Shown piece after piece: positions 5,935 through 54,323 of a DNA stretch of 64,000 bases. The stretch lies in the IMG/VR virus record IMGVR_UViG_3300025413_001239; one strand, 5' to 3'. Within the stretch, counting starts at the first letter, position 1, and every line of letters begins with the position of its first letter. Origin of the DNA: a virus. Taxonomy: Duplodnaviria > Caudoviricetes. The position numbers were made by a program, and so were the translations under genes. The notes beneath the pieces were generated by a model, which did no database searches, was not told the DNA's origin, and worked only from the letters and a program-made list of their open reading frames with translations.

Positions 5935-6005
5935 GGTTCTATAGCTCAACGGCAGAGCTGGACTCTCTAAAAGTCTTGATGTTGGTTCGATTCCGACTAG
6001 AATCA
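5935..6005 (+). tRNA. Amber suppressor tRNA (anticodon CUA)
   Basis: Full cloverleaf: GGTTCTA/TAGAATC acceptor, GCTC/GAGC D stem, GGACT-CTCTAAA-AGTCT anticodon arm (CTA at 5967-5969), GTTGG-TTCGATT-CCGAC T arm, A73; own promoter at ~5900. Confidence 0.9.
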
Positions 6006-6053
6006 CACTTTACATTTTTTAACAATTATTGTATATTTATAAAAAAAAGAAAT

Positions 6054-10958: not shown

Positions 10959-12194
10959 TTAAATAACAATTAAATCGTTATTTATTTGATTACGGACATT
11001 ATTGTTCATAATCACACTAGTGTAATCCAGTGGCTTTGTCATTGAAGCAAGGTGATTGTCGTAATATCTTTTCATTATGTTGATAGCTGAGTTTAAATCT
11101 CTATCTATTTCGACATTATCACTTAGTTTAACAGTTCTATCCTTTAACTCAACTTTATCTTTAAATAGCTTACCAGTAAGACTATTCAATTGAGTGGTGT
11201 ATTTTTCATCAATCTTAATTAAATCACATTGTTTATTTTGTGACTTATACTTAAGAAATTCTAAGAACATATTAATATTAGATTCATTAAATGATTTTCT
11301 AATACCCTTTTTATTCTTATTTACTCCTTCTGTTGACATAAGGGTTTTTACTGTTAAATCGCCAACTACAATTGTTTTGTAGTTCATATTCACTAATTTT
11401 TTACTCTGAATATGTAGAGTTTGTTTAATTTGACTATTCTTCTTATTATATAGTTTTCTTTTAACTTTATTTAATTTATTAAAGGATTTACTATTCTTTT
11501 GTTTTTTGCTTAACTTAGACTTAATCTTATTAATCTGTTTACCGAAGTACTGATTAATCCTCTTTGATTTATTTTTAAGAATAACAACGGTACCATTGTT
11601 ATCCACACCAGTACCTAAATTCTTTAGACCTAAATCAATAGCGAGTACTCTTGATTTAATTATTAAATCATCTGAGTAGTTTATTTTATCATCGACAACA
11701 ATATCACAAAGCCACTTATTATTAATAAATTTGACTCTAATTTCTTTAATATTTAATTCAGATAAGTTTGTTAAATGACTTGAATATTTAAAATTAATTT
11801 TATTTATTGAAATTATACTATTTTCTTTGAATATCCAACCATTTAGGTTAAAAACTAATGTATGATACTTTCCGAGTTCTTTTGTCTTTGGTGGTCTAGC
11901 TGTATTATCTTTTTTAATAAGTGTGAAGAAAGATTGGTATGATTGAAATATTTCAGCTGCCACAACTTGTGCTGCTTTTGCATTAAATTGTTTCCAAGAT
12001 TCCTTGGTTGAATATTTCAATGGTGGAATGAGGTTAATTAAATCAAACTTTGAGTATACCTTTTTAGTTGATTCATAGTGTTTTTGCTGAATATCAATAA
12101 GAGTGTTCCAAATATCCATACGAATATCAGACAACTGTTTTAGTTGAGATACCTGTTCTGTTGTTGGGTGTAACCTTATTGAGTATGTTTTCAT
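10959..12194 (-). CDS. tnpB: Solo TnpB-family RNA-guided nuclease with rearranged RuvC-II and no Zn finger
   Basis: YSIRLHPTTEQ N-terminus, AIDLGLK, VVGDL (G at canonical E), IDEKYTTQ, DRDLNSAINI. Confidence 0.85.
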   Translation of the reverse strand: MKTYSIRLHPTTEQVSQLKQLSDIRMDIWNTLIDIQQKHYESTKKVYSKFDLINLIPPLKYSTKESWKQFNAKAAQVVAAEIFQSYQSFFTLIKKDNTARPPKTKELGKYHTLVFNLNGWIFKENSIISINKINFKYSSHLTNLSELNIKEIRVKFINNKWLCDIVVDDKINYSDDLIIKSRVLAIDLGLKNLGTGVDNNGTVVILKNKSKRINQYFGKQINKIKSKLSKKQKNSKSFNKLNKVKRKLYNKKNSQIKQTLHIQSKKLVNMNYKTIVVGDLTVKTLMSTEGVNKNKKGIRKSFNESNINMFLEFLKYKSQNKQCDLIKIDEKYTTQLNSLTGKLFKDKVELKDRTVKLSDNVEIDRDLNSAINIMKRYYDNHLASMTKPLDYTSVIMNNNVRNQINNDLIVI

Positions 12195-15570: not shown

Positions 15571-15696
15571 AAAATTTAGAAAAGAGAAAGCCAAAAACTT
15601 TCTCTTTTTTATTTTAAAAAAAAATTTGTTCGTTTCAAAAAAAGCTGTATATTTGCATTCTAAATAATTTATTAATAATTAAAAAAAAAAAAGACA

Positions 15697-16455
15697 ATGA
15701 AATTAATTTGGAGAGAGTTTAATTTTAATTCAGTTTATTACGACACTGAAAAAAAAGAAATGGTTAGTTGTACAACAGCTGAATTTCTTAGGTACTTAAA
15801 GGGTGTTTATACCAATAAGGAGCGATTCATTAATCGTTTCATTGATAGGCACAAAGCAACAATGGTAGAATATGACTTGAAGGGTCATAGTGAGCCAGAT
15901 TACAATATCTGCATTGAGTTCTTTGATAAGTTGGTAGCTGATTACGATGCTGCGAAACCATTCACTTTCAAGGAATCATTCGAGTTGGAAAACAAAGAGT
16001 TTCAAGCATTGGTATTCTCTTCAATTGATATTACCGATATGATTTCTCAATTGGGTGCTAAGAGAATTAAGACTGATGGTATTGAGTTGGACCAAAATAT
16101 CTATGATGATGATGGTAACCTTCTTGGTAAAGAAAAGAGGTCTAATATCTACGAGGTTCACGAAGTTGATGGTGAGAAATTGGGCTTGGAAGAAAAGTTG
16201 TATGTTGTTAAGTGCTGGTGTACAACAACAGATAAGGAACATTGGTTGTGGATTGATGATAAATACAAAGACGACCCATTAACAGCGATTGCCTCAACGT
16301 TCATGGTGCACGAAAATGTTATCCCACATATTAAGTGCTTAAAAAGACAAGGTGATGTTCTTTTGGCTGAAATGACTAAGGAAGTTACACCTGAGGGTGA
16401 GATTGTTTCTTTGACAAAAGACCAATACTTCTCTTTGTTAGCAGCACAAGCTTAA
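15697..16455 (+). CDS. Conserved phage protein, DUF6745-like C-terminus (paralog of 60528)
   Basis: CWCTTTDKEHWLW..AIASTF..RQGD..Y..LL.AQA. Confidence 0.55.
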   Translation: MKLIWREFNFNSVYYDTEKKEMVSCTTAEFLRYLKGVYTNKERFINRFIDRHKATMVEYDLKGHSEPDYNICIEFFDKLVADYDAAKPFTFKESFELENKEFQALVFSSIDITDMISQLGAKRIKTDGIELDQNIYDDDGNLLGKEKRSNIYEVHEVDGEKLGLEEKLYVVKCWCTTTDKEHWLWIDDKYKDDPLTAIASTFMVHENVIPHIKCLKRQGDVLLAEMTKEVTPEGEIVSLTKDQYFSLLAAQA

Positions 16456-16511: not shown

Positions 16512-16820
16512 ATGAATCAATTAAACGAAAAAAGTCAACCACATGGCTTATGGGTTGAATATTATAAAGACGGTAAAATACGTAGTGAGCATAATTGGTT
16601 AAATAGTGACCGACATGGTGTTTGTAAGGACTATCATGAAAATGGTGTCCTGTTTATTGATGCTGTGTATAAAAATGGCAAAAGAGTTACTTGGTCTAGA
16701 TATTTCGAAAATGGTAGTCTAGAAGTCTTTGAGCTTTATGATAAAATGGGTTTATGTTATATGAAATTTTTTAATCACAGTGGTGATATAAACCAACGTT
16801 TTCATCGTTTTTTACTTTAA
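16512..16820 (+). CDS. MORN-variant/YwqK-like repeat protein
   Basis: MNQLNEKSQPHGLWVEYYKDG..HG..YHENG repeats. Confidence 0.8.
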   Translation: MNQLNEKSQPHGLWVEYYKDGKIRSEHNWLNSDRHGVCKDYHENGVLFIDAVYKNGKRVTWSRYFENGSLEVFELYDKMGLCYMKFFNHSGDINQRFHRFLL

Positions 16821-17275: not shown

Positions 17276-18568
17276 ATGAAGTGTATTAAAACAAGGAAAA
17301 TTCAGTTGTTGCCATTAGGTGATTTTAATGAAACCTACAAATACGTTAATAATTTAAGTTCAGGCTTAGCGTCACTCGGTAATGAAATGATAAGGAGACA
17401 TGTTTTATCATTTTATGAAATGGACGTACTAAAAGATTCAACTCCAGATGCTAAAACTAGAACTAATCTAATGAAGGAAAAATACGGAATGTCACTCCAA
17501 AATATGGGTTATGATGTTTCAAAAAAGTATTCAGCCACAATTCCTTCGAATATTCGCACAACATTTAATCAAAAGGTCTTTAAAAAAATAAAAGACAGTT
17601 ATTTTGGTATTTCAATAAATAAAGAATCTATACCATCATTCAGAAAAGACTCAATGGCAATTCCATTTAGTTATGATAATAATATCAGTTTGAACGAATT
17701 TGGGGTGTATGATTTTAAATTCTTTAATAATGTCAATTTTAAATTAAACTTTGGACGTGATAGGTCTAATAATAAAGTTATCATTGACAGAATTTTATCT
17801 AATGAATATAAGCCATTATCTTCACATATAAAAATTGATAAGAAAAAAATATTCTTAGATTTAACATATTCTTTTGACTCAGATGAAAATGTTAACATAT
17901 CTAAAGATAAAATTGTTGGTGTTGATTTAGGTATAAATAGACCTATGACAATTGCTAGGGAAGATGGTACTTATGCAAAACAAATAGAAATCGGTGGTAA
18001 GATTCAATACTCTAGATTATCAATTCAAAAACAAAGAAGAAGCTTACAAAGTGCTTTAAGGCATTCATCTGGTGGTCATGGTACTGGTAAAAAAATAGCT
18101 AAATTAAAATCATTAAAAGATTATGAACATAATTTCATGAAAACCACTAATGATACACTAAGTCGTGAATTAATAAAATATTGCGTTAATGAAGGTGTTG
18201 GTGTAATTAAATTAGAAAATCTAACTGGTATAACAGAAAATGCTAATAATTTTCTTAAGTCTTGGTCTTATTATCAATTACAACAAATGATTGAGTATAA
18301 AGCTGCTGAATTTGGAATTACAGTATTATATGTTAATCCTAGATATACCTCTCAAACTTGTCCAACTTGTGGCAATATTGATAAAACTCAAAGAGATTCA
18401 AAGGATAAAACAAAATTTGCTTGTTCAAATGAAATTTGTTCTGATATTAATATAAATAAAGATGCTGATATTATTGGTGCCTTTAATATCTCAAAAAGAG
18501 ATGGTGTTATCGCTTCTAAAAAAATATTACAAGAAAAAAGTGATAAAAAGTTGTTAGTTTCAGAATAA
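17276..18568 (+). CDS. Compact type V CRISPR effector (Cas12f/TnpB-like, 430 aa)
   Basis: RuvC triad GVDLG, IKLENL, KDADIIGAFNI; Zn finger CPTC..CSNEIC; KTRKIQL N-terminus; immediately upstream of anti-repeat and CRISPR array. Confidence 0.85.
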   Translation: MKCIKTRKIQLLPLGDFNETYKYVNNLSSGLASLGNEMIRRHVLSFYEMDVLKDSTPDAKTRTNLMKEKYGMSLQNMGYDVSKKYSATIPSNIRTTFNQKVFKKIKDSYFGISINKESIPSFRKDSMAIPFSYDNNISLNEFGVYDFKFFNNVNFKLNFGRDRSNNKVIIDRILSNEYKPLSSHIKIDKKKIFLDLTYSFDSDENVNISKDKIVGVDLGINRPMTIAREDGTYAKQIEIGGKIQYSRLSIQKQRRSLQSALRHSSGGHGTGKKIAKLKSLKDYEHNFMKTTNDTLSRELIKYCVNEGVGVIKLENLTGITENANNFLKSWSYYQLQQMIEYKAAEFGITVLYVNPRYTSQTCPTCGNIDKTQRDSKDKTKFACSNEICSDININKDADIIGAFNISKRDGVIASKKILQEKSDKKLLVSE

Positions 18569-30168: not shown

Positions 30169-30329
30169 AATTTAAAGGATGATTTTTAGATTGCTTTCTA
30201 AATTAATTGATTTAACATCACATATTGTTAATCTAGCAATAAAACTCAGATGGTGGGGCTTAGTTAATAAGCTTGTCAATTTTAAGAAAAAAAACATAGC
30301 AGCTAATGCTAGAAAATTTGTTAAAACAC

Positions 30330-30707
30330 ATGAATAAGTTAAACGCTGATGGTGAAAGAGATGGCTATTGGGAGGAAACCACCGAATTTGGTTCTTTTGA
30401 TAAAAAGTGGTATATAAACGGTAAACTTGATGGTTTATTTGAGCAGTATTTCAGTAATGGTCAATTACGTTTTAGAATATTTTTTAAAGATGGTTTACGA
30501 CATGGTCCGTATGAAGAATATTGGAATAATGGTCAATTAGATAATCGTGGTACCCGTAAAAATGGTAACCTTCATGGTTTTTGTGAGTCTTATTGGTCTG
30601 ATGGTGAAGTTTATTTTAAGGGGTTTTTTAAAGATGGTGTCGAGTTTGGTTTTTTCGTTGAGGGGTTTGATTCATCAGACAAAATTTTTAACGTATTTTA
30701 TTTATAA
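30330..30707 (+). CDS. MORN-variant/YwqK-like repeat protein
   Basis: MNKLNADGERDGYWE..HGPYEEYWNNG..FYL; likely start 30330. Confidence 0.8.
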   Translation: MNKLNADGERDGYWEETTEFGSFDKKWYINGKLDGLFEQYFSNGQLRFRIFFKDGLRHGPYEEYWNNGQLDNRGTRKNGNLHGFCESYWSDGEVYFKGFFKDGVEFGFFVEGFDSSDKIFNVFYL

Positions 30708-40257: not shown

Positions 40258-41624
40258 TGTTCATTAAAACTTAAAAAATATTAGTAAAAATTAGATAAAA
40301 ATAAATGCGTGTATTTTTGTCTTTTTCATTTTTTCAATATATTTATTATTAAGGGTGTAAATACATCCATCGTTAAATTATGTTAAGAGCAATTAAAATA
40401 AGACTTTACCCAAATAAAACTCAACAAAGTTATATTAATAACTTGATGGGTTGTTATCGTAAAGTATATAATCTATCTCTTAATTATAAGATAAACGAAT
40501 ATAACTTAAATGGTGAAAACGCTAATATGAAAAGTATTGGTAATCAATTTCATAATAATTGGACAAAATCAGATGATTACCAATACCTAAATAATCATAA
40601 CACAAAAGTTTTGAAACAAGCAATTATTAATATGCTTGATTCGTATAAAAGATTTTTTGTTAATGGTAATGGTTATCCTAAATTTAAATCAAAACATGAT
40701 AATAAACAATCATGCAGATTTCCATCAGAAGCAATATCTAAACGTAACGATTATTCATCATATAAACTAACACTTATATCACAATTAAAAGATATTAAAT
40801 TTAGTTGTTCTGAAGAATATTCAAAATACTTAAACAAGCATAAAGATAATATTAGGTCTGCAACATTAACCAAAAATAAATCAGGTGAGTATTATTTAAG
40901 TATCTTAATTGATGGAGATTTATTAAAATCATTAAACACACCAAGTAATCAATTTATTGGTATTGATTTAGGTATAAAGGATTTTATTATAACGTCTAAT
41001 GGGGAAAGATTTGAAAATATTAAGATAAAAAGGGGTAATGAAAAAAAGTTAGCTAGACTACATCGTAAGTTATCTAAAAAACAAAAAGGAAGCAAGAATA
41101 AAGAAAAAGCGAGAATTAAGTTAGCTAAATTTAATCATAAACTAACTAATATTAAAGAAGAATATTTACATAAGATAAGTAATCAATTATTAAACGAAAA
41201 TCAAGTTATTGTAATTGAGGACTTAAATGTGAAGGGTATGATGAAAAATCATAATTTAGCAAAATCAATACAAGAATTAAGTCTTTACAATTTTAAGAGT
41301 AAATTATTGTATAAGAGTAATTGGTATAATAGAACAATAATTGAGATAGATAGATTTTATCCTAGTTCAAAGTTATGTTCATCTTGTGGGTATAAGAATA
41401 TTGATTTAGAACTGAGTGATAGGGAATGGACTTGTCCATCATGTAAAACAAAGCATGATAGAGATTTTAATGCTTCTATTAATATTCTAAATGAGGGGGT
41501 AAGGTTATATAATAATATAATACCCATCCGTTGTGGGGAATTAACGCCTTTGGAGAGTAGTCAACAGACACTCAATGAATTAGGAAATCGGGATTTGCAT
41601 AATATTGTGTAAGTTTCGTTGAAC
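40258..41624 (+). mobile_element. Non-autonomous IS605/IS1341-type element carrying only tnpB
   Basis: TGAAC immediately before the left end and at the right end; excision restores ATG AAC GGT ACT.. ORF coupled to the upstream gene. Confidence 0.65.
40380..41612 (+). CDS. tnpB: TnpB RNA-guided endonuclease (canonical)
   Basis: AIKIRLYPN HTH, GIDLGIKD, VIEDLNVKGM, FYPSSKLCSSCG..CPSC, DRDFNASINI. Confidence 0.95.
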   Translation: MLRAIKIRLYPNKTQQSYINNLMGCYRKVYNLSLNYKINEYNLNGENANMKSIGNQFHNNWTKSDDYQYLNNHNTKVLKQAIINMLDSYKRFFVNGNGYPKFKSKHDNKQSCRFPSEAISKRNDYSSYKLTLISQLKDIKFSCSEEYSKYLNKHKDNIRSATLTKNKSGEYYLSILIDGDLLKSLNTPSNQFIGIDLGIKDFIITSNGERFENIKIKRGNEKKLARLHRKLSKKQKGSKNKEKARIKLAKFNHKLTNIKEEYLHKISNQLLNENQVIVIEDLNVKGMMKNHNLAKSIQELSLYNFKSKLLYKSNWYNRTIIEIDRFYPSSKLCSSCGYKNIDLELSDREWTCPSCKTKHDRDFNASINILNEGVRLYNNIIPIRCGELTPLESSQQTLNELGNRDLHNIV

Positions 41625-44219: not shown

Positions 44220-45728
44220 ATGGTTATGGTTGATTACAAAATTAAAGGAACGAAAATACCCAAATTAAGCGGTGTCGATGTTAGATTATCTCATTGGGGT
44301 GAATCATCAACAAATACTCGAAATCATGAATCATCATCATCTCTTGTTTCATACGGTTCAAAAGTTTTTAATGGTGAAGTATGGATAATTTGCGATTTAC
44401 CAAAAAGCACTGATAGTTACCATTATATGTTTAAATTGGTAGATATTGAAAAGCTGCTGCGGAATCAAGTAATAGTCCTGAATCAACCGTTTCCCAACCA
44501 CAAAATGGTGATGGTCCAATCAAATTAATTAAAACAAAAGTTCTTAAAATAAATTTGGTAGATTAAAAAATATCACGTATATTTGCATCATAATAACAAG
44601 GATAATTTTTAAACAAAAAAAACAAGTAAAATGGCAGACGCTAAAAGTAAAAAAGTAACCGTTAAGGGTGAAGTAAGTGAAGAAGTAGTTAAAGTGAATC
44701 CTTTCTTGGAGTCAGCGTTGGAAAACGTGAACAAGACTGAGGCAGATGTTTTGACCGAAAAAGTCACATTGTTCTTGGAAGAAGCGGCAATCGAAACCGA
44801 AATGCAAATTGCTGAGCGTACCACTGGTGCTATCCCAAGAAAGGAATTGGAGTTAAGAACCGCTACTCGCAACCTTGATAAGGCTGAGGTGGCTCTTGAA
44901 AAAGCTAAAGTTGCTGTTCCAAGCAACAGTAAATTGGAAACGTATTTGTCAAATTTGTATTCGGCTGAAAATGCTGTAAGACATGCAAAGGTAACCGTTG
45001 AGGCTATCGAAGGTCAAATCACTGACTTGAATAAAGAAGTGGTTAAGCTTGAAGAAATCCTTGCACGTTTCAAAGCGTAATTTTAGTCTAAGATGAAAAA
45101 CCCCAACAAAATAAATTGTTGGGGTTTTTGTTTTTATCAGAATTTATCTGTATATTTGCAATAAAATAACTTATATGAAAGTATTATTAACAACTTTATT
45201 ATTAACATTAGCTTCTTGTGCTTGTACAATAAAAAAACCAGCACCAGTTGAATTTGAAAAAAAGACTTTCATTGCAGATTCCGTGGTGTATCACGACTTA
45301 CAAACGGACAACATTGCTCAGGTGGACCCTTACACTCGAGTTCACTTAAAAGGAACCGATGTTTGGTTACAAATAAATGGTTTTGTTTGTGAAGGGCAAG
45401 AAGTTCAAGTTTTTGTCGCTAAAAAATAAACACTATGAGTTTTATACTTTTTGAATCATTTAGTGGTGTTGAACATAAGATTAATACCAATCAGATTACA
45501 CACCTTAAGATTCATCCTAATGAAGATAAGTGCATATTAACAGGTGTTAATCATCAGGATGCTAGAACGTTACCTAATTTTGAAATACGCTTAGCGTGTG
45601 GCAAAGTCATAGATAGAAATACACTAATCGGAGCCGCATCACCTAGCTTCATAAGGTTACAAGAATCTCAATACAGAACTGTAAGATTTGAAATTGAGGA
45701 ATTAATAAGAAAATTAAAAGACTTATAA
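44220..45728 (+). other. Hypothetical genes 44220, 44631 (coiled coil), 45175, 45435
   Basis: ORF track; terminator at 45096-45129. Confidence 0.6.
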
Positions 45729-45730
45729 GT

Positions 45731-46168
45731 ATGTCAATAACAACAGCATTTAAGAATGCTTTTATAAAAGCCAAACAACGAAATTGGCCTGAGATTTATA
45801 TCGGTGTGGACATTCATGATACCATGATTAAATCCAATTATAAGCATGGTGAAATACCAACTGAGTTTTACCCTTACGCTATCGAATGCTTACAAGCACT
45901 CTCAAAACGTAAAGACATCAAGCTTATGCTTTATACATGCAGCCACCAACATGAGATTGAACAATACATGGAACTCTTTAAATCCCATGATATACACTTC
46001 AATTTTGTTAACGAAAACACCGATGTTAAAACAGACTTGGGTGGTTATGGCAACTACGATAAAAAACCCTATTTTAACGTTCTACTGGATGATAAAAGCG
46101 GTTTCGATGGTGAACGAGATTGGCTGGACATTAAGATACTCTTAGATATTATTAACCCATTAACATAA
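45731..46168 (+). CDS. HAD-superfamily hydrolase-like protein
   Basis: IYIGVDIHDT, LYTCS, VNEN, KPYFNVLLDDK. Confidence 0.7.
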   Translation: MSITTAFKNAFIKAKQRNWPEIYIGVDIHDTMIKSNYKHGEIPTEFYPYAIECLQALSKRKDIKLMLYTCSHQHEIEQYMELFKSHDIHFNFVNENTDVKTDLGGYGNYDKKPYFNVLLDDKSGFDGERDWLDIKILLDIINPLT

Positions 46169-46208
46169 TCCAATGTACAAATCAAGATAAAATTAACGAA
46201 TTTTACTT

Positions 46209-47060
46209 ATGAATCAAAGAAACGATAAAGGCTTAAGAGAAGGTTATTGGGAAGTTTATTATCCAAATGGCAAATTGGGATGGTTTGGCACATATAAAAA
46301 TGGTATTTTTATTGGGTATTATGAAGATTACAACAAAGATGGAATCATGATTAATAAAGATTTTTTCTTATGAGTAATATAGTTTATAAAGAATACTTCC
46401 ATGAGAATGGTAAGATTTGGCAACGTGGTTATAAGAAAGAACATAGAAGAATAGGTCACTGGGAATGTTTTTACAATAATGGCAACTTGAAATGGTTTGC
46501 CACATTTGATAAGAATCACAATTTAGTTGGATATAGTGAAGATTACGATGAGGATGGTAAATTATGACTTAAAGAATTTTACTTATGAATCAATATAACT
46601 TAAACAGAAAAAGACATGGTCCATGGGAACAATACTACGAGAATGGTCAACTCTGGTATAAAGGTGAATTCATTGACGGAAAAAGACATGGTCCATGGGA
46701 ACGTCACATAAATGATGGTAATTTATTGGCTAAAGGTGAATATATTAATGATAATTACATCGGATTCTGGATATGGCATAATATTACAAATCAAGATAAA
46801 ATTAATGAATTTTACTTATGAATAAACTTAATGAAAACGGTGAAAGACATGGACTTTGGGAAAAATACCATACAAATGGTAAACATCATTATAAGGGCGA
46901 ATATATAAACGGTAAAAGAAACGGACTTTGGACATTTTATTGGTGGAATAATACCCCAAGTTATACTGGCTTCTTTAAAGATAATGCATTTATTGGTTAT
47001 TTTGTATTTCATTATAATTTTGCTGGTTTATTAATAAACTCTAAGAGTTTTTATCTTTAA
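46209..47060 (+). repeat. MORN/YwqK-like mini-gene block 1 (46209-46373, 46370-46567, 46585-46821, 46818-47060)
   Basis: Each MN..G.W/HG.WE..NG..F(Y/F)L; ATGA overlaps. Confidence 0.85.
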
Positions 47061-47107
47061 CATTTGTTAGTTTCAATTTATTAACGTATATTTGCAAAAA
47101 AAACACA

Positions 47108-47916
47108 ATGACAAAAGTACCTAAAGCGTATATTAACGCAAATTACACATTGGCAGTAAAGCCAACTGAAGAACAACTATTGGAATATTATAAGGATTTC
47201 GGCCACGATACTATAGAAAGTATCCTAGAAGAACAAGGTTCTTGGGAAGAAGTAATCCGTCAATGGTTCGTTAACACAATCTTCAATCAAGACTATAAAG
47301 ACTATCAAACAGCCAATAATATCTTCCAATATGAAGATGATGGTGAATCAATTGAAGTTGATATAGTTGATGATGATAAATGGGTAAGTGATGAAGATTA
47401 TATTTACTAAAAATTAAGTCATGGAAAAAATATATCATTTAAGAATACTCGATGGAAGCAGTCGAGGTTATACAATCTCTGTTACCAGTGACAGAGTGGA
47501 TAGTTATCAAGCTAATTACCATTTCTATAATATAGTTGATGGGTATAAAGTTGATGTGGCCTTTTATCCAAGTGGTCGTACAATAATTGAAAGAATTGAA
47601 GATGGAGAATAAAGAACTTTGTGGTTCGTGTGGTGTAAAAATGGCTCAATGGTGCTACCTATCAGGTTATGGGAACGGTGAAAGCCCTTACTCTTGTGAT
47701 GATTGTGTTACATCAGTAGACTACGATGGTTGTTCATGTAACTGGCACTACTTACAATACGAACAACCAGAAGGTATAGAAGGTAAAGACTTTAGATTCA
47801 TACTTAGTGAGGGTATAACAAAAGAAGATGGAATCTGGATTCGTTTAGATGAACAAGGAAGACCCTACCCTTGTGCTGAATACTGCTTCGATGAAGAAGG
47901 CTTCGATAAAGATTAA
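47108..47916 (+). other. Three hypothetical genes with own promoter (47108, 47421, 47587 Cys-rich)
   Basis: ORF track. Confidence 0.6.
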
Positions 47917-47920
47917 AAAT

Positions 47921-48692
47921 ATGAATCAGTATAACTCCGAGGGGCAACAACATGGTTATTGGGAATATTACTCATATGTTAAACTATCATCCAAAGTTGA
48001 ATACGTTAATGGTAAAATTCATGGTTTATTTGAGCGGTATTTCAGTAATGGTCAATTACATATTAAGGGAGACGTGTTTAATGATATACGAATTGGCTTC
48101 TGGAAACAATATAACTGTAATGGTGGGTTAGAAGTAACTGAATTTATACTATGAATCAACTTAATAAAAACGGCGTTAAGCATGGGCCTTGGATTGAATA
48201 CTGGGTTAACGGTGTAATGGATTATTCATGCGAATTTATAAATGGTCGTAAGCATGGTTTATATATCGGTAATCATCCTAATGGTAATCTACAATCTAAA
48301 ATTATGTATGATATGGGCCACAGAGATGGAAAACAAGAAACATTTTACGAAAATGGTAAACTAGGACATTCTGGAAATTTTAAACGTGGTAAACGATTCG
48401 GTTATCATATCATAAATAATGAAGATGGTAGTTTATTCATTAATTATTTTTACTTATGAATAAAAGAAATGAAAATTGTGAACCTCATGGACCTTGGGAA
48501 AAATACTACGAGGACAATATATTGAAAGCTAAAGGCTTATATGTAAATGGTAAAGCTCATGGTCAATGGGAATTTTATTGGGGTAATGGTAACTTTCAAT
48601 GGCAAGGCACTTATAAAATGAGTGAATTAGTAGGCTTCTGGATAGGGTATACTTATGAAGGTGATTTGGCTTCAAAAGAATTTTTTTTATGA
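47921..48692 (+). repeat. MORN/YwqK-like mini-gene block 2 (47921-48154, 48151-48459, 48456-48692)
   Basis: Same motifs and overlaps. Confidence 0.85.
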
Positions 48693-48771
48693 ATCAAATT
48701 TGCTTATATCAAATACCTTTCGTATATTTGCTGCCTATACTCTAGTATAGGCATTTTTAATTTAACATATT

Positions 48772-49469
48772 ATGAAAATAACAAAATTACTATTTGAAAA
48801 AAATTATAATGGTGAATACACTTGGTTGCCATTAGCAGATATACCAAAGGAGTTCTTGGTGCCTGAAAACATGATAATGGTTCATATTGAACATGGCTAC
48901 CATGATAGTAATGGTTGGAATGAAGGTCATACAAGAATTCAAATCGCTGAGGAAAGAGAGATGAATGAAAAGGAAAGAGAAGAACTGAGAACGTTTATCG
49001 CACAAAAAAAAGCTGAACGTAAAAAAGAAAGGTACGAACAGTATTTAGAACTTAAAAAATAAATAAAATGGAAAAAGAATTTATCCCTTACGAAGAAGCA
49101 TTAGCATTAAAAGAATTAGGTTTTGATGAACCTTGTTTTGGGTTTTTTAAAACTAATAAAGAATTTGAACAATACCATACCTTTTATAAAGGTAAATTCT
49201 TTGGATGTACAAATAAAATATTATCTAGAATGTTAGATGGTGAAAACGTCAATTCTAAAGTTTTATCACCAACATTCTCACAAGCATTCAGATGGTTTAG
49301 AGATAACCATAATTTACATGGTCAAGTAAATATTCGTACTTGGTTTATATATGAAACGTCTAATGGTAATTTAACCATGGTAGATTTATATGATAAGCTC
49401 AATAACTCTCACGAAGAATCCGAACTGGTATGTCTTAAAGGATTAATTCAAATAGTAAAAAATAAATAA
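48772..49469 (+). other. Two hypothetical genes (48772, 49068)
   Basis: 49068 has the ALALKELGFDEPC..PTFSQAFRWFR pattern typical of Bacteroidota phage proteins. Confidence 0.6.
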
Positions 49470-49534
49470 TGTTTGGAATAATAAACTAACTGGTAGCGAT
49501 AAAACATGGTGGAAAATAGTTAAACAGGCAAAAG

Positions 49535-52368
49535 ATGAATAAGATACTTAATGGCTTAAGAGAATGACCTTGGGAAATGTATAACCACATTGGTGGATTA
49601 TCCTACAAAGGAACTTATCTACAAAGTCAAAAGATTGGTTATTGGTATTTTGATTGGTTTGGTAAACGCAAAACAGAGTTTTACTTATGAATAAGGTAAT
49701 TAAAGGTTTAAAAGAAGGGCTTTGGGAACAATATTTTTCTGATGGTAGCTTATATTACAGGGGAAGTTATTTGCACGACAAAATGGTTGGTTACTGGGTC
49801 GTTAATTATTTAGTCCGTTTTAAGCATCGTAAACAAGAAACTGAATTTTACTTATGAATCAATTTAACGCTAGAGGTAGCAAACATGGTCATTGGAAAAG
49901 TAATATTGGCGATACGTATATCCATGATGGTTCTTATCTTAATGGCAAAAAACATGGCCCTTGGAAATCAACCTTCGCATTTTCCGATAAGTTAAGCTGG
50001 ACTGGTTTCTATAAAATGGATATGCAAGTCGGATTCTGGAAAAAGTATCAAAAAGGTAAATTATATAAAACTCTATTTTATATATGAATCAATTTAACGA
50101 GAAAGGGGAAAAGCACGGCTATTGGGAACGAAAAATTGGTGGAGTATTCACCCATAAGGGTTCCTATGTTAATGGTAAACAACATGGCTTATGGTTATCA
50201 GCATCTTGGGAAGAATATCATACTAATGGTAAATTACATTATAGAGGACAATACAAAAATGGAAAATACATTGGTAGATGGATATACTATTTTTCTAACG
50301 GCAAGTTAGCTTTTCTGGGTCATTACTTAAATGGTAATTACATAGGCTTCTGGATAGTTAATGATGATGATGGTCAATTAAAATATAAAGCATTTTATCT
50401 ATGAATCAAAGAAACGATAAAGGCTTAAGAGAAGGTTATTGGGAAGATAAACATGGTGATATGGTAATTTATAAGGGTTCCTATGTTAATGGTCAAAAAC
50501 ATGGCTTATGGTTATCAGCATCTCCAACTTCTAATCGGTTAAATTGGGCAGGTTATTTTGATATGGATACCAACGTGGGGTTCTGGTGTTGGTATCTTAA
50601 AGGTGAATTAAAAACAACACTAGAATTCTTTTTATGATTAAGCAAAAACTACATGAATTTGATAATAATTGGTATAGAGGACAATGTATAAATAATATAC
50701 CTGTTGGATTTTGGTTATTTAAGACTAATACAATTTTTGGTAAACATAATAAGATTTTTTACTTATGATATATTATGATAAAATGGACAGAATTAGTGAA
50801 TTATCTAATTATCTTCTCTACGGTTTCAATTTTACTGGCCGTTACATTAACGGATTTAAAATCGGATTTAAAATCGGATTTTGGGCCATAATTGATTATT
50901 CAACCGAATTAACGCATAAAGAATTTTACTTATGAAAATACATCATCATGAAACAACATGGTCTAAAGGCACACTTATTGATGGTGCGCAAATTGGTTAT
51001 TGGGAATACTATCACCACGTTAATCGTGGCAATTTAAAATCAATTAATAAAGTATTTCTTTTATGAAAGAACACTACAAATCAAATTGGGCAAAGGGTAC
51101 ATTTATTAATGGTGATTTTCATGGCTATTGGGAATTTTATCAGTATGGTAATTCTAAAATACTAAGCAATAAAATCACAATTAAAACATTCTTCATATGA
51201 AAGAATACGTAAATCAAACTTGGTATAATAGAGGTGGTAACTTAAAACGAGCTGAATTTTATTTATGAACGACAAAAATACAACCGAATTAATTGAAAGG
51301 TATTATCAAAACGGACAACTTAGTATCAGAGTTACATTAGTAAACGGCAAAAGGACTGGTGCTTGTGAATCATATTTCCAAAATGGTAAATTGGAATTTA
51401 AAGGACCATGCCTAAATAACGAACCCATCGGATTCTGGCTGGATTATCATTATAGCGGTAAATTAAATACAACAGAATTTTACTTATGAACGAATATATA
51501 CTTGAAATAAATTATTATAATAACGGAAAAATACGTTTTAAGTCATCTTATACGGATAATCGAAATAAGACTACAACCGAATGGTATTTCGAAAACGGTC
51601 AGTTAGACTTGATGTGTCATTACTTAAATTATCAACAAATAGGATTCGCTAAATCCTATTATCAATATGGTGGTTTACATACAACAGAATTTTACTTATG
51701 AATCAATATAACGCAAACGGTGAAAGACATGGCCCTTGGGAATTTTATCACAATAAAAAAATTGAATGCAAAGGCCAATACGTAAACGGACAAAAAGAAG
51801 GTCAATGGATATGGTATTACCCTAACGGAACAATAGCATTCAATTACGTAAACGGATTAATGCATGGCACGTTTGAAAGTCATGATGATAAGTCAATACT
51901 TGTTTGTAAAGGCCAATACGTAAACGGACAAAAAGAAGGTGAATGGTGGGAAACTAACATAACGAAAGCATACACATGGTTAAGAACTTATTCAAAAGAC
52001 CATATCAGATTTGAAAAAAAATATGAATACATGGGTCATTTAATACATAAAGCATTCTTCTTATGAATAAGAAAATTAATAGCTTAAAAGAAGAACCTTG
52101 GGAAACCTATTATACTAATGGTAAACTAGCCTCTAAGGGTGAATACATTAACGGCAAACATCACGGACCATACGAATCATTTTATATGAATGGTAACTTG
52201 TATTGGCAAGGCTATTTTAAAGACGGTATTTACCATGGCTTATTTAAAGTATTTTATAATAACGGACAAGTATTCTCTAAAGGTCAACACTTTAATGGTG
52301 GTAAATGTGGCATATGGGAATACTATCACGAAGATGGTCTAATAGATTATAAAGAATTTCACTTATGA
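49535..52368 (+). repeat. MORN/YwqK-like mini-gene block 3: 14 chained ORFs (starts 49535, 49687, 49854, 50084, 50401, 50634, 50765, 50932, 51063, 51197, 51265, 51486, 51698, 52063)
   Basis: Read codon by codon; 23-122 aa each, all joined by ATGA overlaps; first has an internal TGA. Confidence 0.85.
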
Positions 52369-52384
52369 TGTTTAACGAACTTAT

Positions 52385-52523
52385 GTGCCGTAGGCCAGAT
52401 GTCCAACGGACGAGTGTGCCGTAGGCCAGATGTCCAACGGACTTGTGTGCCATCGCCATGAAGGCTCTGGACGAGTGTGCCGTAGGCCAGATGTCCAACG
52501 GACGAGTGTACACAAAAGTGTTC
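52385..52523. repeat. Tandem 30-31-nt GC-rich repeats (4 units)
   Basis: GTGCCGTAGGCCAGATGTCCAACGGACGAGT x3 (one with 2 changes) plus a variant unit; then GTACACAAAAGTG. Confidence 0.9.
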
Positions 52524-52882
52524 ATGAAATTAGAAGTTATGGATAAATATAACAACATAAGACTCTTATTGTAAAAATTACTTAAAATTCCTTAAATTTA
52601 ATTCTATGTGTTCTTAAGTGTACCTAAAACAACCCGTTTACATTATTTGAGTTTTTTTTTGAATTTTTGGTAAAATGTGGTAAAAAGTGGGTAAATGTGG
52701 TAAAATCCAGACGTAAAAAACGGAAAATGGGGTTTTTAAGGCATTTTAAAGAGTTTTTTAAAATATAGCATTTTAGCCATTTTTGAAAAATCATTTTATA
52801 CCACCCACTAAAAATATTTTTTTTCGATATATTACAGGAAATTTTTATACGTCTATATACAGGGCATAAAACCGCTTTTATA

Positions 52883-52972
52883 TACACAAAAGTGTACATG
52901 AAGTCCAGAGCCTTCATGGCGATGGTACACTCGTCCGTATGTCCTCGTGACTACGGTACATAAAGTCCACAC
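52883..52972. repeat. Inverted member of the same repeat family
   Basis: 52903-52930 is the reverse complement of 52445-52472 with one mismatch. Confidence 0.85.
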
Positions 52973-53089
52973 ACAAGCCTGAATGTTCCACGTGAAACAT
53001 AAGATTTTGGCCAGGTTTTTACGGTACCCTTAAAGCTTAAATTTTTCATGTTCAGCCTTAAGAATTGTACCTGAGTACTTGTGGTTTAA

Positions 53090-53353
53090 TTAAACAGTTA
53101 TTTGCGCACTGGATGCGTCATATTTAATTGAACCATATTTACTGTACTGAATTCCAGATTTAAATTCAGGTTCCTTTAACCTAAGAAATTTGTATGCGTC
53201 CCATAGGGCCTTTTTAGCTTCTCTTTTTGTTTTAAATGTTATTGTGTATCCATAGAAGTTATTTCTAGTTGTTACAGAATTATGTGTTTGGATTGCTCTA
53301 CAAAGGGTACTGTTTCCGTTTATTTGACCCGTAATGTTAATAGTTGTTATCAT
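53090..53353 (-). CDS. Hypothetical protein with divergent promoter
   Basis: TACTTTTG motif on minus strand at ~53380. Confidence 0.6.
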   Translation of the reverse strand: MITTINITGQINGNSTLCRAIQTHNSVTTRNNFYGYTITFKTKREAKKALWDAYKFLRLKEPEFKSGIQYSKYGSIKYDASSAQITV

Positions 53354-53549
53354 ATATAAGTTATTTGATGAGCGGCAAAAGTATATGTATGTAAGTCACC
53401 GTAAAAGATGAATTTGGTTATGTGGTAATCTACTAGTATATTTGCAGTAGTTAAGTGGTTAATTGTTAAGGGTTTACATATAAATAAAATAAAAAAAGTT
53501 TTTGCCATATCAAAAAATACCCTTATCTTTGCATTCTAAATTAACAATT

Positions 53550-54323
53550 ATGGTATTAGAAAATGTTCAAAGTAAAAAAGTTATTAAAACAAGTTATGTT
53601 CGTGGTAAGTATCCTTTATTAACTCAAAACAATTACAAAACAATTAAGGGTGAAAAGTTGGGCATCAAAACACTTATATTGTATCTAAGTCCTTATAAGG
53701 ATAATAGTAAGGGTAAAAACTTATGTCCCAAGGCTAGTTTAGGTTGTAGCAAAGCTTGTTTATTTAATAGTGGTATGGGTGGTATGTATGAGCAAGTTGC
53801 TAATGGTAGACGTAATAAAACAGAATGGTTTCTCGAAGATAGGGAAAGTTTTGTTGGTACGCTTATTGTTGAGATTGCGAAAGCGGTAAAAAAGTATAGT
53901 GCTGATTGGCATTTGAGTATTCGCTTAAATGGTACTAGTGATATTGTTTGGGAAAACATTTATTATGGTGGTAAGAATATTTTCGAGCATTTTCCTGATG
54001 TAGATTTTTATGACTATACTAAAATTAGTAGTAGATTCAAAAAACAACTACCAAAAAATTACCACTTAACTTTTTCAAGGAGTGAAGAAAACGAAAGTGA
54101 AGCTTTAAGCTTATTGCGTAAGGGTTTCAATGTGGCTGCCGTATTCTTAAAAAAACCAACACATTACAAAGGGTTTAAGGTAGTTGATGGCGATTTATCT
54201 GATAACCGTATTGGTGACGAAAAGGGTGTAATTGTAGGTTTATCCTATAAGAACGCTACAGGTAAAAATGGTGGTGAATTAAACCAATATGCGAAGACTA
54301 GTGGGTTTGTAATATTTATTTAA
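53550..54323 (+). CDS. Phage Gp88-like protein
   Basis: NLCPKAS.GC..ACL, IRLNGTSDI.WE, FYDYTK, YHLTFSRSE, DGDLSD.R; likely start 53550. Confidence 0.75.
   Translation: MVLENVQSKKVIKTSYVRGKYPLLTQNNYKTIKGEKLGIKTLILYLSPYKDNSKGKNLCPKASLGCSKACLFNSGMGGMYEQVANGRRNKTEWFLEDRESFVGTLIVEIAKAVKKYSADWHLSIRLNGTSDIVWENIYYGGKNIFEHFPDVDFYDYTKISSRFKKQLPKNYHLTFSRSEENESEALSLLRKGFNVAAVFLKKPTHYKGFKVVDGDLSDNRIGDEKGVIVGLSYKNATGKNGGELNQYAKTSGFVIFI

Follow-up and report, generated by a model that had tools for sequence, protein, structure and literature searches.

Chains of overlapping genes for small MORN_2 proteins in a huge phage genome

Organization of the array and its operons

The window, i.e. the whole 64,000-nt stretch of DNA analysed, comes from a contig of a huge phage of at least 343 kb. 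A Bacteroidota-type promoter motif (TTTG..N..TAnnTTTG) occurs 37 times in the window against 5.7 expected, and the phage host is probably a member of the Bacteroidota. Between positions 46209 and 52368 there are 21 small genes (termed units) of 23–122 aa, all on the plus strand, as are the other features given below with start and end positions. They are grouped as 4 + 3 + 14 units in block 1 (46209–47060), block 2 (47921–48692) and block 3 (49535/49577–52368). Two solo mini-MORN genes lie elsewhere in the window: one of 102 aa at 16512–16820, which is in a syntenic position 3′ of a conserved 252-aa anchor gene (15697–16455), and one of 125 aa at 30330–30707, whose open reading frame opens at 30306. 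An earlier, sequence-only reading of this DNA had listed the three groups and both solo copies, and all of them are present where it had placed them.

Sequence signals place the 21 units at the downstream ends of three predicted polycistronic operons; each operon opens with a promoter followed by two or three non-MORN leader genes. Within the array, promoter motifs are found solely at the block boundaries (45127, 47063 and 48699). The array region is rich in accessory genes (tRNAs, TnpB-like and homing-endonuclease genes) and recognisable structural genes are far off. The phage also carries a suppressor-type tRNA, for TAG.

Operon A has its predicted promoter at 45127–45158 (motif scan), followed by two non-MORN leader genes at 45435–46168 that encode 97 aa (unknown family) and 145 aa (weak HAD-like matches). 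Next is a tail remnant of 12 codons without a start codon (46177–46212), which ends in TNQDKINEFYL and a stop and is a copy of the tail of the unit at 46585–46821 with 1 mismatch in 37 nt. Unit 1 (54 aa, 46209–46373) has a head (46213–46255) that is identical in 43/43 positions to the head of the unit at 50401. The head at 46176–46255 is chimeric, and at least one recombination has broken at the junction, which supports the recombinational shuffling suggested in the sequence-only reading. Unit 2 (65 aa, 46370–46588) has a premature TGA at 46565–46567, six codons before the canonical LKEFYL end; read-through would restore both LKEFYL and the ATGA junction. Unit 3 (78 aa, 46585–46821) is canonical, with an N-cap, three repeats and a C-cap, and is the unit that was modelled. 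Unit 4 (80 aa, 46818–47060) closes the block with TAA.

In operon B the predicted promoter (47063–47094, motif scan) precedes three non-MORN leader genes at 47108–47916, of 100 aa, 63 aa and ~104 aa (Cys-rich), for which a family search gave no matches. Units 5 (77 aa, 47921–48154), 6 (102 aa, 48151–48459) and 7 (78 aa, 48456–48692) follow. A start of unit 5 at 47849 was considered and rejected, the true start being 47921. After unit 7 there is a truncated head of a next unit, ATGAATCAAA (48689–48698), which abuts the operon C promoter.

That predicted promoter (48699–48730, motif scan) is followed by a terminator-like hairpin (48732–48753) and by two non-MORN leader genes (48772–49469) of 96 aa and 133 aa, the latter belonging to a widespread phage family (phrog_25117/12005). 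Unit 8 (49535–49690) begins MNKILNGLRE, and an in-frame TGA (49565–49567) then falls on a near-invariant Gly position of the N-cap, before PWEM; a 37-aa open reading frame restarts at 49577. Position 49577 was rejected as the start of this unit, as the real start is 49535 with the in-frame TGA between. The block continues with units 9 (56 aa, 49687–49857), 10 (77 aa, 49854–50087), 11 (106 aa, 50084–50404) and 12 (78 aa, 50401–50637). Units 13–17 (50634–51268; 44, 56, 44, 45 and 23 aa) are without the N-cap, but the C-cap and the ATGA chaining are retained; they are probably truncated copies. Units 18 (74 aa, 51265–51489), 19 (71 aa, 51486–51701), 20 (122 aa, 51698–52066) and 21 (101 aa, 52063–52368) complete the array.

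Junctions, repeat architecture and fold

The coding frames of the array run through 1468 codons free of stops, while the remaining forward frames contain 87 and 217 of them. Paralogue identity within the array has a median of 37%, and the frames are nevertheless open. At 17 of the 18 within-block junctions the stop codon overlaps the next start codon by 4 nt (ATGA), with a frame shift of −1 each time; outside the array, an ATGA-type overlap is found in 4/18 neighbouring gene pairs of the same phage (gene calls of L002). TGA terminates 19/21 units versus 2/29 long open reading frames elsewhere in the window. The junction DNA varies at synonymous sites (TTT/TTC, TAC/TAT, TTA/CTA/ATA), so what is conserved is largely the peptide. 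Thus the stop that doubles as the next start, as originally described, holds true, but an identical DNA junction does not; the junction is kept mostly as a peptide plus an overlap constraint rather than as fixed DNA.

Each unit consists of an N-cap (MNxYNxxGxxHGxWE), one to five 24-residue β-hairpin repeats and a C-cap (K/T-x-F-Y/F-L/I). The two ends are the most conserved parts of every unit. The shared termini noted earlier are seen as an N-terminal MN in 13/21 units, F at position −3 in 20/21 and a terminal L or I in all 21. The units are of cytoplasmic type, 23–133 aa in length, with neither a signal peptide nor a fibre-attachment domain. Their pI values range from 5.6 to 9.9, and a role as DNA mimics was rejected.

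Ten units were tested against the Pfam MORN_2 model (PF07661, a 22-residue repeat with a gathering score of 29.6 bits): six pass (33–44 bits), three are below the cut-off (22–28 bits) and one has no match. A profile derived from the units matches every unit except three short ones. Profile searches also gave hits to MORN1 and SET7/9. The AlphaFold model of unit 3 (pLDDT 94.9) has six strands and displays a single antiparallel sheet of consecutive β-hairpins, i.e. a MORN fold; its best structural matches in the PDB are MORN folds (the SET7/9 N-domain, MORN1 and RSPH1). The top Swiss-Prot structural match is Bacillus subtilis YwqK (P96723; E-value = 1.5e-4, TM 0.76), which superposes with an rmsd of 2.5 Å over 76 residues at 21% identity. 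The initial assignment as MORN/YwqK-like is upheld by these matches.

Recurrence, turnover and diversification in relatives

The chained layout recurs in relatives (metagenomes and IMG/VR) with 1 to >50 units per phage, as does the placing of promoters at block boundaries. The layout is characteristic of a clade of huge phages rather than unique to the window genome. In every relative examined a mini-MORN gene or chain is found near the 252-aa anchor gene, whose product gave no recognisable fold on search. Unit lengths change in steps of one 24-aa repeat (30/54/78/102/126 and 59/83/107/131/155/202). Two overlap designs are known: one of 4 nt, and one of 11 nt in sister phages, where units end in TAA and the overlap is in the +1 direction. 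The closest relative has a 2.1-kb chain of 9 units where positions 15616/15623 of the window are contiguous, and its MORN genes show 66%–72% nt identity to those of the window versus ~85% for flanking genes. Copy number, repeat number and sequence thus differ greatly among relatives, and the array is not invariant. Both caps and the scaffold residues (G, W, aromatic pairs) persist even between phages with only 50%–60% identity in their anchor proteins. No population-level variation was seen, because the 11 metagenome contigs of the window's phage are 100% identical.

One IMG/VR relative with young duplicates will be used to show the substitution pattern. Here pS is 0.15–0.18 and pN 0.18 overall, with pN/pS ~1.2 (counting methods; gene conversion among paralogues can lower pS). 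In 11–14 hypervariable columns pN reaches 0.62–0.67, a value that is partly circular because the columns were picked by their own pN; outside them pN/pS is ~1 in the young paralogues. Along the 24-residue repeat, the hypervariable columns fall at one recurring register (p = 0.002 and 0.0002 by permutation), and this register is also the most variable in two other relatives. The periodic positions that selection would diversify are those following WE, preceding NG in YY-x-NG, and coming first after (Q)L. In the window array dN/dS is 0.7, which is uninformative because divergence among the copies has saturated dS. The description of the array as a diversifying library is supported in relatives, by turnover of copies, repeats and sequence, by pN/pS of ~1 or more in young paralogues and by periodic hypervariable residues. 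Part of the window array may be decaying, since two units have a premature TGA and five short ones have no N-cap.

Possible function and related systems

The array is a multigene family of tiny MORN_2 proteins, and we propose with moderate confidence that it serves as a panel of intracellular binders or inhibitors, which would be expressed early. The units lie on one strand with stop/start overlaps and without internal promoters. Because each stop overlaps the next start, terminating ribosomes could re-initiate on the next unit, and such coupling would suit a host without Shine-Dalgarno-led initiation. Changes in family size may come from tandem duplication, from unequal exchange between repeats, with altered repeat number as the outcome, and from recombination at the conserved junction; selection would keep the scaffold and diversify a few periodic positions. 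Each unit would be directed against one version of a protein that is polymorphic in hosts or competitors, e.g. a toxin or defence effector, and neutralise it. An anti-defence or antitoxin role of this type would parallel the binding of YwqK to the YwqJ deaminase toxin.

YwqK is the cognate immunity protein complexed with the ssDNA cytidine deaminase toxin YwqJ (bioRxiv 10.64898/2026.09.29.755374). Like the units it is a small cytoplasmic all-β MORN_2 protein (PF07661 carries the label "YwqK family antitoxin"), and its mode of action is to bind and neutralise a protein toxin. It is however a single 154-aa gene beside the toxin gene ywqJ in a T7SS operon, whereas the phage has at least 21 toxin-less copies with their own caps, stop/start chains and variable repeat number, at 21% identity to YwqK. 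Searches of the operon leaders and neighbours (Pfam, PHROGs, NCBIfam, PADLOC) found no toxin, deaminase or LXG genes, i.e. no candidate for the cognate toxin gene beside which a YwqK-type gene is encoded. Defence or anti-defence families were not detected in or beside the array. A repeat scan of 45000–53600 gave no near-identical template/variable repeat pair of the DGR type.

Orphan immunity arrays of bacteria, such as the acquired interbacterial defence clusters of Bacteroidales, are many small, diverse tandem binders without cognate toxins. These contain mixed unrelated immunity families on bacterial mobile elements; the present array differs in consisting of one family, in a phage, with overlapping junctions. 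The MORN2 families of Fusobacterium share the Pfam repeat, local duplication and varying gene and repeat numbers with the array, and repeat-mediated recombination has been proposed to drive their expansion (PMC4222103). They are however bacterial and larger, 87% have signal peptides, and they are proposed surface adhesins (PMC4222103); stop/start chains or cap motifs have not been described for them. Giant eukaryotic viruses also have multigene families of repeat proteins (ankyrin, MORN, FNIP and others; PMC5753266), which are lineage-specific expanded paralogues thought to engage host proteins. The MORN sheets of Marseillevirus, Pithovirus and Orpheovirus proteins are structurally similar to the units, but these families have eukaryotic hosts and are monocistronic and much larger, with no translational chaining or quantised mini-units described.

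The nearest viral structural matches are proteins named "MORN variant [uncultured Caudovirales phage]" (TM 0.93, 47% identity): A0A6J5M5J6 (84 aa), A0A6J5M5P7 (56 aa) and A0A6J5M6D9 (180 aa). These have automatic names only, on metagenomic phage contigs, and very likely belong to the same family because their size classes agree. A literature search found no published description of the array, its junction or its evolution. The initial remark that no such system had been described therefore stands for papers describing arrays, but not for the layout, which recurs, nor for single genes, which have been deposited.

The units may instead be structural subunits that co-assemble head to tail into hetero-oligomeric β-sheets, as an intracellular scaffold or virion decoration, with coupled translation giving matched amounts. 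We regard this as possible but rather unlikely. Both edge strands of a single-layer MORN sheet are open, the conserved ends would lie there, a C-cap and the following N-cap together resemble a stretched MORN repeat, and both overlap designs would keep coupled translation. Hypervariable periodic positions are however unexpected in structural subunits, as are the 1 to >50-fold copy-number differences among close relatives, with whole blocks present or absent, and the location behind host-type promoters in an accessory region rather than among structural genes.

It is improbable that the units are target-recognition modules or decoys (envelope-protein mimics or host-recognition adaptors) related to long secreted Bacteroidota MORN_2 proteins. 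Among cellular proteins, the unit profile indeed matches MORN_2 proteins of ~1,090–1,100 aa best, and one that was examined (1,104 aa, from a contig labelled as an uncultured Bacteroides MAG) has a hydrophobic, signal-peptide-like N-terminus. Phage adhesins (T4-type gp38) also have hypervariable positions on a fixed scaffold, resembling the units. The likeness to the long proteins is however one of general repeat consensus, and the small units lack the domains for export or fibre attachment and are far from recognisable structural genes.

A similarly low probability is given to a functionless or selfish expansion, in which duplicates from unequal recombination decay neutrally and frames stay open solely for downstream translation. 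The two premature TGA codons, the five truncated units, the tail and head remnants and the pN/pS of ~1 outside the hypervariable columns are consistent with it. On the other hand, with a median identity of 37%, neutrally evolving sequence of this composition would be expected to run into a stop within some twelve codons, and 19/21 units are intact; the scaffold residues and both caps are conserved between phages, and variability is periodic rather than uniform.

Least of all do we expect one long MORN polyprotein, made by −1 frameshifting at the junctions or by TGA reassignment, as the uniform −1 shift, the bias to TGA terminators and the in-frame TGA at 49565 on a near-invariant Gly (with a suppressor-type tRNA present, though for TAG) might suggest: read-through of a junction TGA leads to an unrelated peptide and soon to TAA or TAG, every next unit starts at its own ATG with a conserved N-cap, the junction lacks a slippery heptamer (tRNA-Leu on TTA would probably re-pair poorly on CTT), and sister phages use TAA with an 11-nt overlap in the +1 direction. 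TGA as a sense codon does not lengthen the longest open reading frames, and one base change suffices to turn GGA into the stop codon TGA.

Organization, junctions and genomic setting of the array

Positions 46209–52368 of the window display small + strand open reading frames of 23–122 aa in three blocks of 4, 3 and 14 units (46209–47060, 47921–48692 and 49535–52368). At 17 of the 18 within-block junctions the sequence is ATGA, where the stop codon of each unit overlaps the start of the next with a frame shift of −1. The coding frames of the array comprise 1468 stop-free codons; read in the two remaining forward frames, this DNA has 87 and 217 stops. Outside the array, ATGA overlaps are found in only 4 of 18 neighbouring gene pairs of the same phage (gene calls of contig L002). 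The chain of mini-genes proposed in the sequence-only reading is thus real and far from chance. TGA is the stop codon of 19 of the 21 units but of only two of 29 long open reading frames (at least 150 aa) outside the array (TAA 21, TAG 6); this usage in the array is dictated by the ATGA overlap. The same reading took the junction to be conserved as DNA; it is not fixed, as it varies at synonymous sites (TTT/TTC, TAC/TAT, TTA/CTA/ATA). What is conserved is therefore the peptide F-[YF]-[LI], together with a last codon ending in A.

The lone non-ATGA junction follows the unit at 46370, which is interrupted by an early TGA at 46565, six codons ahead of the canonical LKEFYL end and its ATGA. The true start of the first unit of block 3 is at 49535 (MNKILNGLRE*PWEM...), and an in-frame TGA (49565–49567) occupies the near-invariant Gly position of the family. 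A tail remnant of 12 codons (46177–46212, + strand) is present upstream of unit 1, and a truncated head, ATGAATCAAA (48689–48698, + strand), follows the last unit of block 2. Solo mini-MORN genes are located at 16512–16820 and 30330–30707, both on the + strand.

Directly after unit 21 is an element of ~590 bp (52377–52963). Inverted repeats with arms of 58 nt (81% complementarity) delimit it on both sides and are G+C-rich, unlike the A+T-rich surroundings; on the left side a 41-nt motif is present in three direct copies. A frame opened by the ATGA behind unit 21 extends into this element, a possible miniature mobile element that would have inserted at the chain end.

Metagenome contigs as long as 343 kb carry sequence identical to the window; the phage belongs to the huge phages. 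For the Bacteroidota-type promoter TTTG-N17-22-TAnnTTTG the window has 37 matches versus 5.7 expected, nearly always on the + strand and mostly just upstream of genes, and this excess points to a Bacteroidota host. The extended consensus, TTTGnTnGnTnCAAA...CGTATATTTG, is helpful for recognising both the host phylum and transcription units. Near the array the motif is found only at 45127, 47063 and 48699, and none is present inside the MORN blocks; thus the three blocks form the distal parts of three operons, each of which opens with two or three small unrelated leader genes that have no assigned function. The array region also holds accessory genes (tRNAs, TnpB-like and homing-endonuclease genes). 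From this location and the host-type promoters we infer that the array is expressed early.

Three TnpB/IS605-OrfB-like genes (phrog_506) are in the same accessory region, at 10959–12194 (− strand), 17276–18568 and 40380–41612. Rfam yielded four tRNAs only. One tRNA, at 5935–6006, has a CUA anticodon (amber suppressor type) and is labelled Pyl by ARAGORN. Alternative genetic codes were considered and rejected; the open reading frame statistics of the window do not indicate a general reassignment of TAG or TGA.

Protein family and predicted fold

An alignment of the window units with those of relatives gives the consensus MNxYNxxGxxHGPWE, followed by ~24-residue repeats and a terminal ...FYL; it has no conserved stretch of 7–10 columns. 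Six of ten units tested pass the gathering score of Pfam MORN_2 (PF07661). The AlphaFold model of a 78-aa unit (46585–46821) displays six antiparallel strands (pLDDT 94.9), and its best solved-structure matches are MORN sheets (SET7/9 N-domain, MORN1, RSPH1). The best reviewed match is the Bacillus subtilis immunity protein YwqK (TM 0.76); the best viral matches are small “MORN variant” proteins of uncultured Caudovirales phages (84 aa, 47% identity, TM 0.93). The assignment of the units as MORN/YwqK-like is borne out by these results.

No signal peptide was found in the units. Their pI is 5.6–9.9, i.e. neutral to basic, which rules out a role as acidic DNA mimics. NCBIfam, PADLOC and PHROGs provide no functional name, and single genes of the family in earlier-deposited entries carry automatic names. 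Among 1.84 billion protein representatives, the top matches to the profile were long MORN_2 proteins only; this search is uninformative on the mini-genes.

Related arrays, turnover and selection

Every metagenome copy of this phage is 100% identical over the array, so these copies show no population variation. The design is, however, common to several other contigs, in which small genes start with MN..N..G..HG.WE, end in aromatic-aromatic-L/I and are chained by ATGA. An ENA contig (L010) has 16 units. Two IMG/VR contigs (CheckV completeness about 26% and 33%) are of 77 kb, with ~26 matches in the record (L013), and of 115 kb, with 82 matches in the record and >30 distinct units in two loci (L011/L012).

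For a conserved 252-aa gene at 15697–16455, termed the anchor, there are 429 homologues on contigs as long as 348 kb, and a mini-MORN gene or chain is found near it in every relative examined (L177, L178, L179, L181, L182, L010, L012). With an anchor 88% identical to that of the window, L177/L178 carry 12 ATGA-chained units. L179, to which L180 is identical, has ~27 units (anchor 59% identical) and L181 has ~32 units of 56–65 aa (61%). L182 (62%) has a solo unit directly downstream of the anchor and one or two isolated mini-MORN genes beyond. In L179 and L181 the array extends from the anchor toward a GP88-family gene, and a gene of this family also follows the array of the window, at 53502. 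The anchor could be a partner of the mini-MORN family. AlphaFold models it confidently (pLDDT 91.3), but this model, made in search of a toxin-like partner, matches no PDB fold, and the sequence has no Pfam, PHROG, NCBIfam or PADLOC hit.

A second junction design is present in L009, L179 and L181. Units end in ...[FY]YA[RK] TAA and the next start lies 11 nt upstream, inside the unit (ATGCAAGATAA), with a frame relation of +1 as opposed to −1 for ATGA. The same bases of this overlap encode in two frames the Y-A-R/K end and the M-Q-D of the next unit. That two dissimilar overlaps lead to one outcome is an argument for selection on translational coupling as such. In bacteria that make no use of Shine-Dalgarno sequences, termination-reinitiation could be studied cleanly on this natural pair of designs.

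The leader gene at 49068–49469 was rejected as a marker of the system, since 158 loci (1.7 Mb) with its homologues showed no mini-MORN arrays. A scan of bacterial genomes gave only ordinary long MORN_2 proteins, GenBank phages had no match to the array (megablast) or to the anchor protein (tblastn), and one query with a single unit found nothing. As far as seen, the arrays appear to be a feature of one huge-phage clade. Within it the array content is not invariant, as related phages have from 1 to >50 units.

Unit lengths are quantised by one repeat: 30, 54, 78/79, 126, 151 and 198 aa in L177/L178; 54, 78 and 102 aa in L010 and L013; 59, 83, 107, 131, 155 and 202 aa in L011/L012; and roughly 54, 78, 102 and 122 aa in the window. 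Unequal recombination between internal repeats would give such lengths. In the closest relative, whose flanking genes have ~85% nt identity to the window, nine chained units take up 2.1 kb exactly at the point where the window is contiguous (15616/15623), and its MORN genes downstream of the anchor show only 66%–72% identity to window units. The recombinational shuffling that had been proposed is represented in the window by at least one example. Positions 46176–46212 are a copy of the unit 3 tail (one mismatch in 37) and positions 46213–46255 a copy of the unit 12 head (43/43); by sequence, 46176–46255 is chimeric, and the breakpoint falls in the junction. At 48699, a cassette of promoter and leader genes adjoins a truncated unit head, which suggests that it was inserted into a once continuous chain.

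The paralogues of the window have a median identity of 37% and are as distant from each other as from the units of other phages. Their dN/dS is 0.7, a ratio that says little as synonymous sites are saturated. Among young paralogues in L011/L012, pS is 0.15–0.18 and pN 0.18 (ratio 1.0–1.2 overall; obtained by counting methods, and gene conversion can depress pS). In 11–14 columns, which were chosen by their own variability, pN is 0.62–0.67, and in the remaining columns 0.11. These variable columns share the register of the 24-residue repeat (permutation p = 0.002 and 0.0002): the residue following WE, the one preceding NG in YY-x-NG, and the first one after (Q)L. The most variable positions in L013 and in L177/L178 are in the same register. 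By the strand assignment of the model they are near the NG hairpin tips, and they would be expected to form a row on a single face or edge of the sheet. The concept of a diversifying library is thus favoured by turnover and by periodic variable positions in the relatives, whereas the saturated ratio of the window is uninformative.

Proposed function and alternatives

The array may best be explained as a panel of miniature binders that share a fixed MORN scaffold, are chained in translation and are expressed early; this panel would be diversified by duplication, change of repeat number and junction recombination, and kept by selection for new specificities. The nearest functional precedent is YwqK, which neutralises the YwqJ deaminase toxin by binding it. 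An adjacent toxin gene is a defining feature of the YwqK family; none was detected in or beside the array with Pfam, PHROGs, NCBIfam or PADLOC. Of the suggested antitoxin/immunity link the structural likeness stands, and the units can be said to work like YwqK rather than to belong to its family. If the units are binders, they make up a library, supplied by nature, on a repeat scaffold that is among the smallest known (30–130 residues); the positions that tolerate diversification are already marked in it, which would be useful for binder engineering.

A wider proposal, which we regard as tentative and rather doubtful, is that phages of one huge-phage clade possess a germline-encoded repertoire of miniature single-sheet binders that keeps diversifying, comparable on the viral side to orphan-immunity arrays. 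Every unit would have its own target to neutralise, a particular variant of some polymorphic defence or toxin effector of the host. The two overlapping stop/start designs would have evolved independently and been selected because they allow all units to be translated from a single mRNA where the host lacks Shine-Dalgarno initiation; the anchor would be a possible partner.

The units may instead co-assemble head to tail into a structure, a reading favoured by conserved edge strands and coupled translation; turnover and hypervariability are at odds with it. They might also be decoys or adaptors related to the long MORN_2 proteins of hosts. Neutral expansion and decay appears to be partly true, for the two interrupted and five truncated units, but 19 of 21 frames are still open at 37% median identity, which argues against it for the window units as a whole. 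A single frameshifted or recoded polyprotein is rejected: read-through of TGA gives junk, the junction sequence speaks against frameshift fusion, each unit has its own ATG and N-terminal motif, and in sister phages the stop is TAA and the overlap +1.

As a binder panel, the arrays would be a handle on what Bacteroidota huge phages must neutralise in their hosts, and their fast turnover, from single units to >50 in related phages, marks a conflict locus that could serve to discover new host defence or toxin systems.

MORN_2 proteins and translational coupling are already known. The literature searched yielded no description of long stop/start-chained, capped and quantised mini-MORN arrays in huge phages, nor of periodic hypervariable positions and two junction designs in such arrays; the view that this layout had not been described agrees with this, single genes only having been deposited. 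Tandem MORN2 expansions are known in Fusobacterium (PMC4222103) and repeat-protein families in giant viruses (PMC5753266). Other viral contigs (L001, IMGVR_UViG_3300035208_006632; L014; L015) display tandem runs of 10–13 larger MORN_2 genes, mostly of 130–375 aa, with neither the conserved start and end motifs nor regular overlaps. Thus phage MORN_2 expansions are broader than the clade that carries the arrays.
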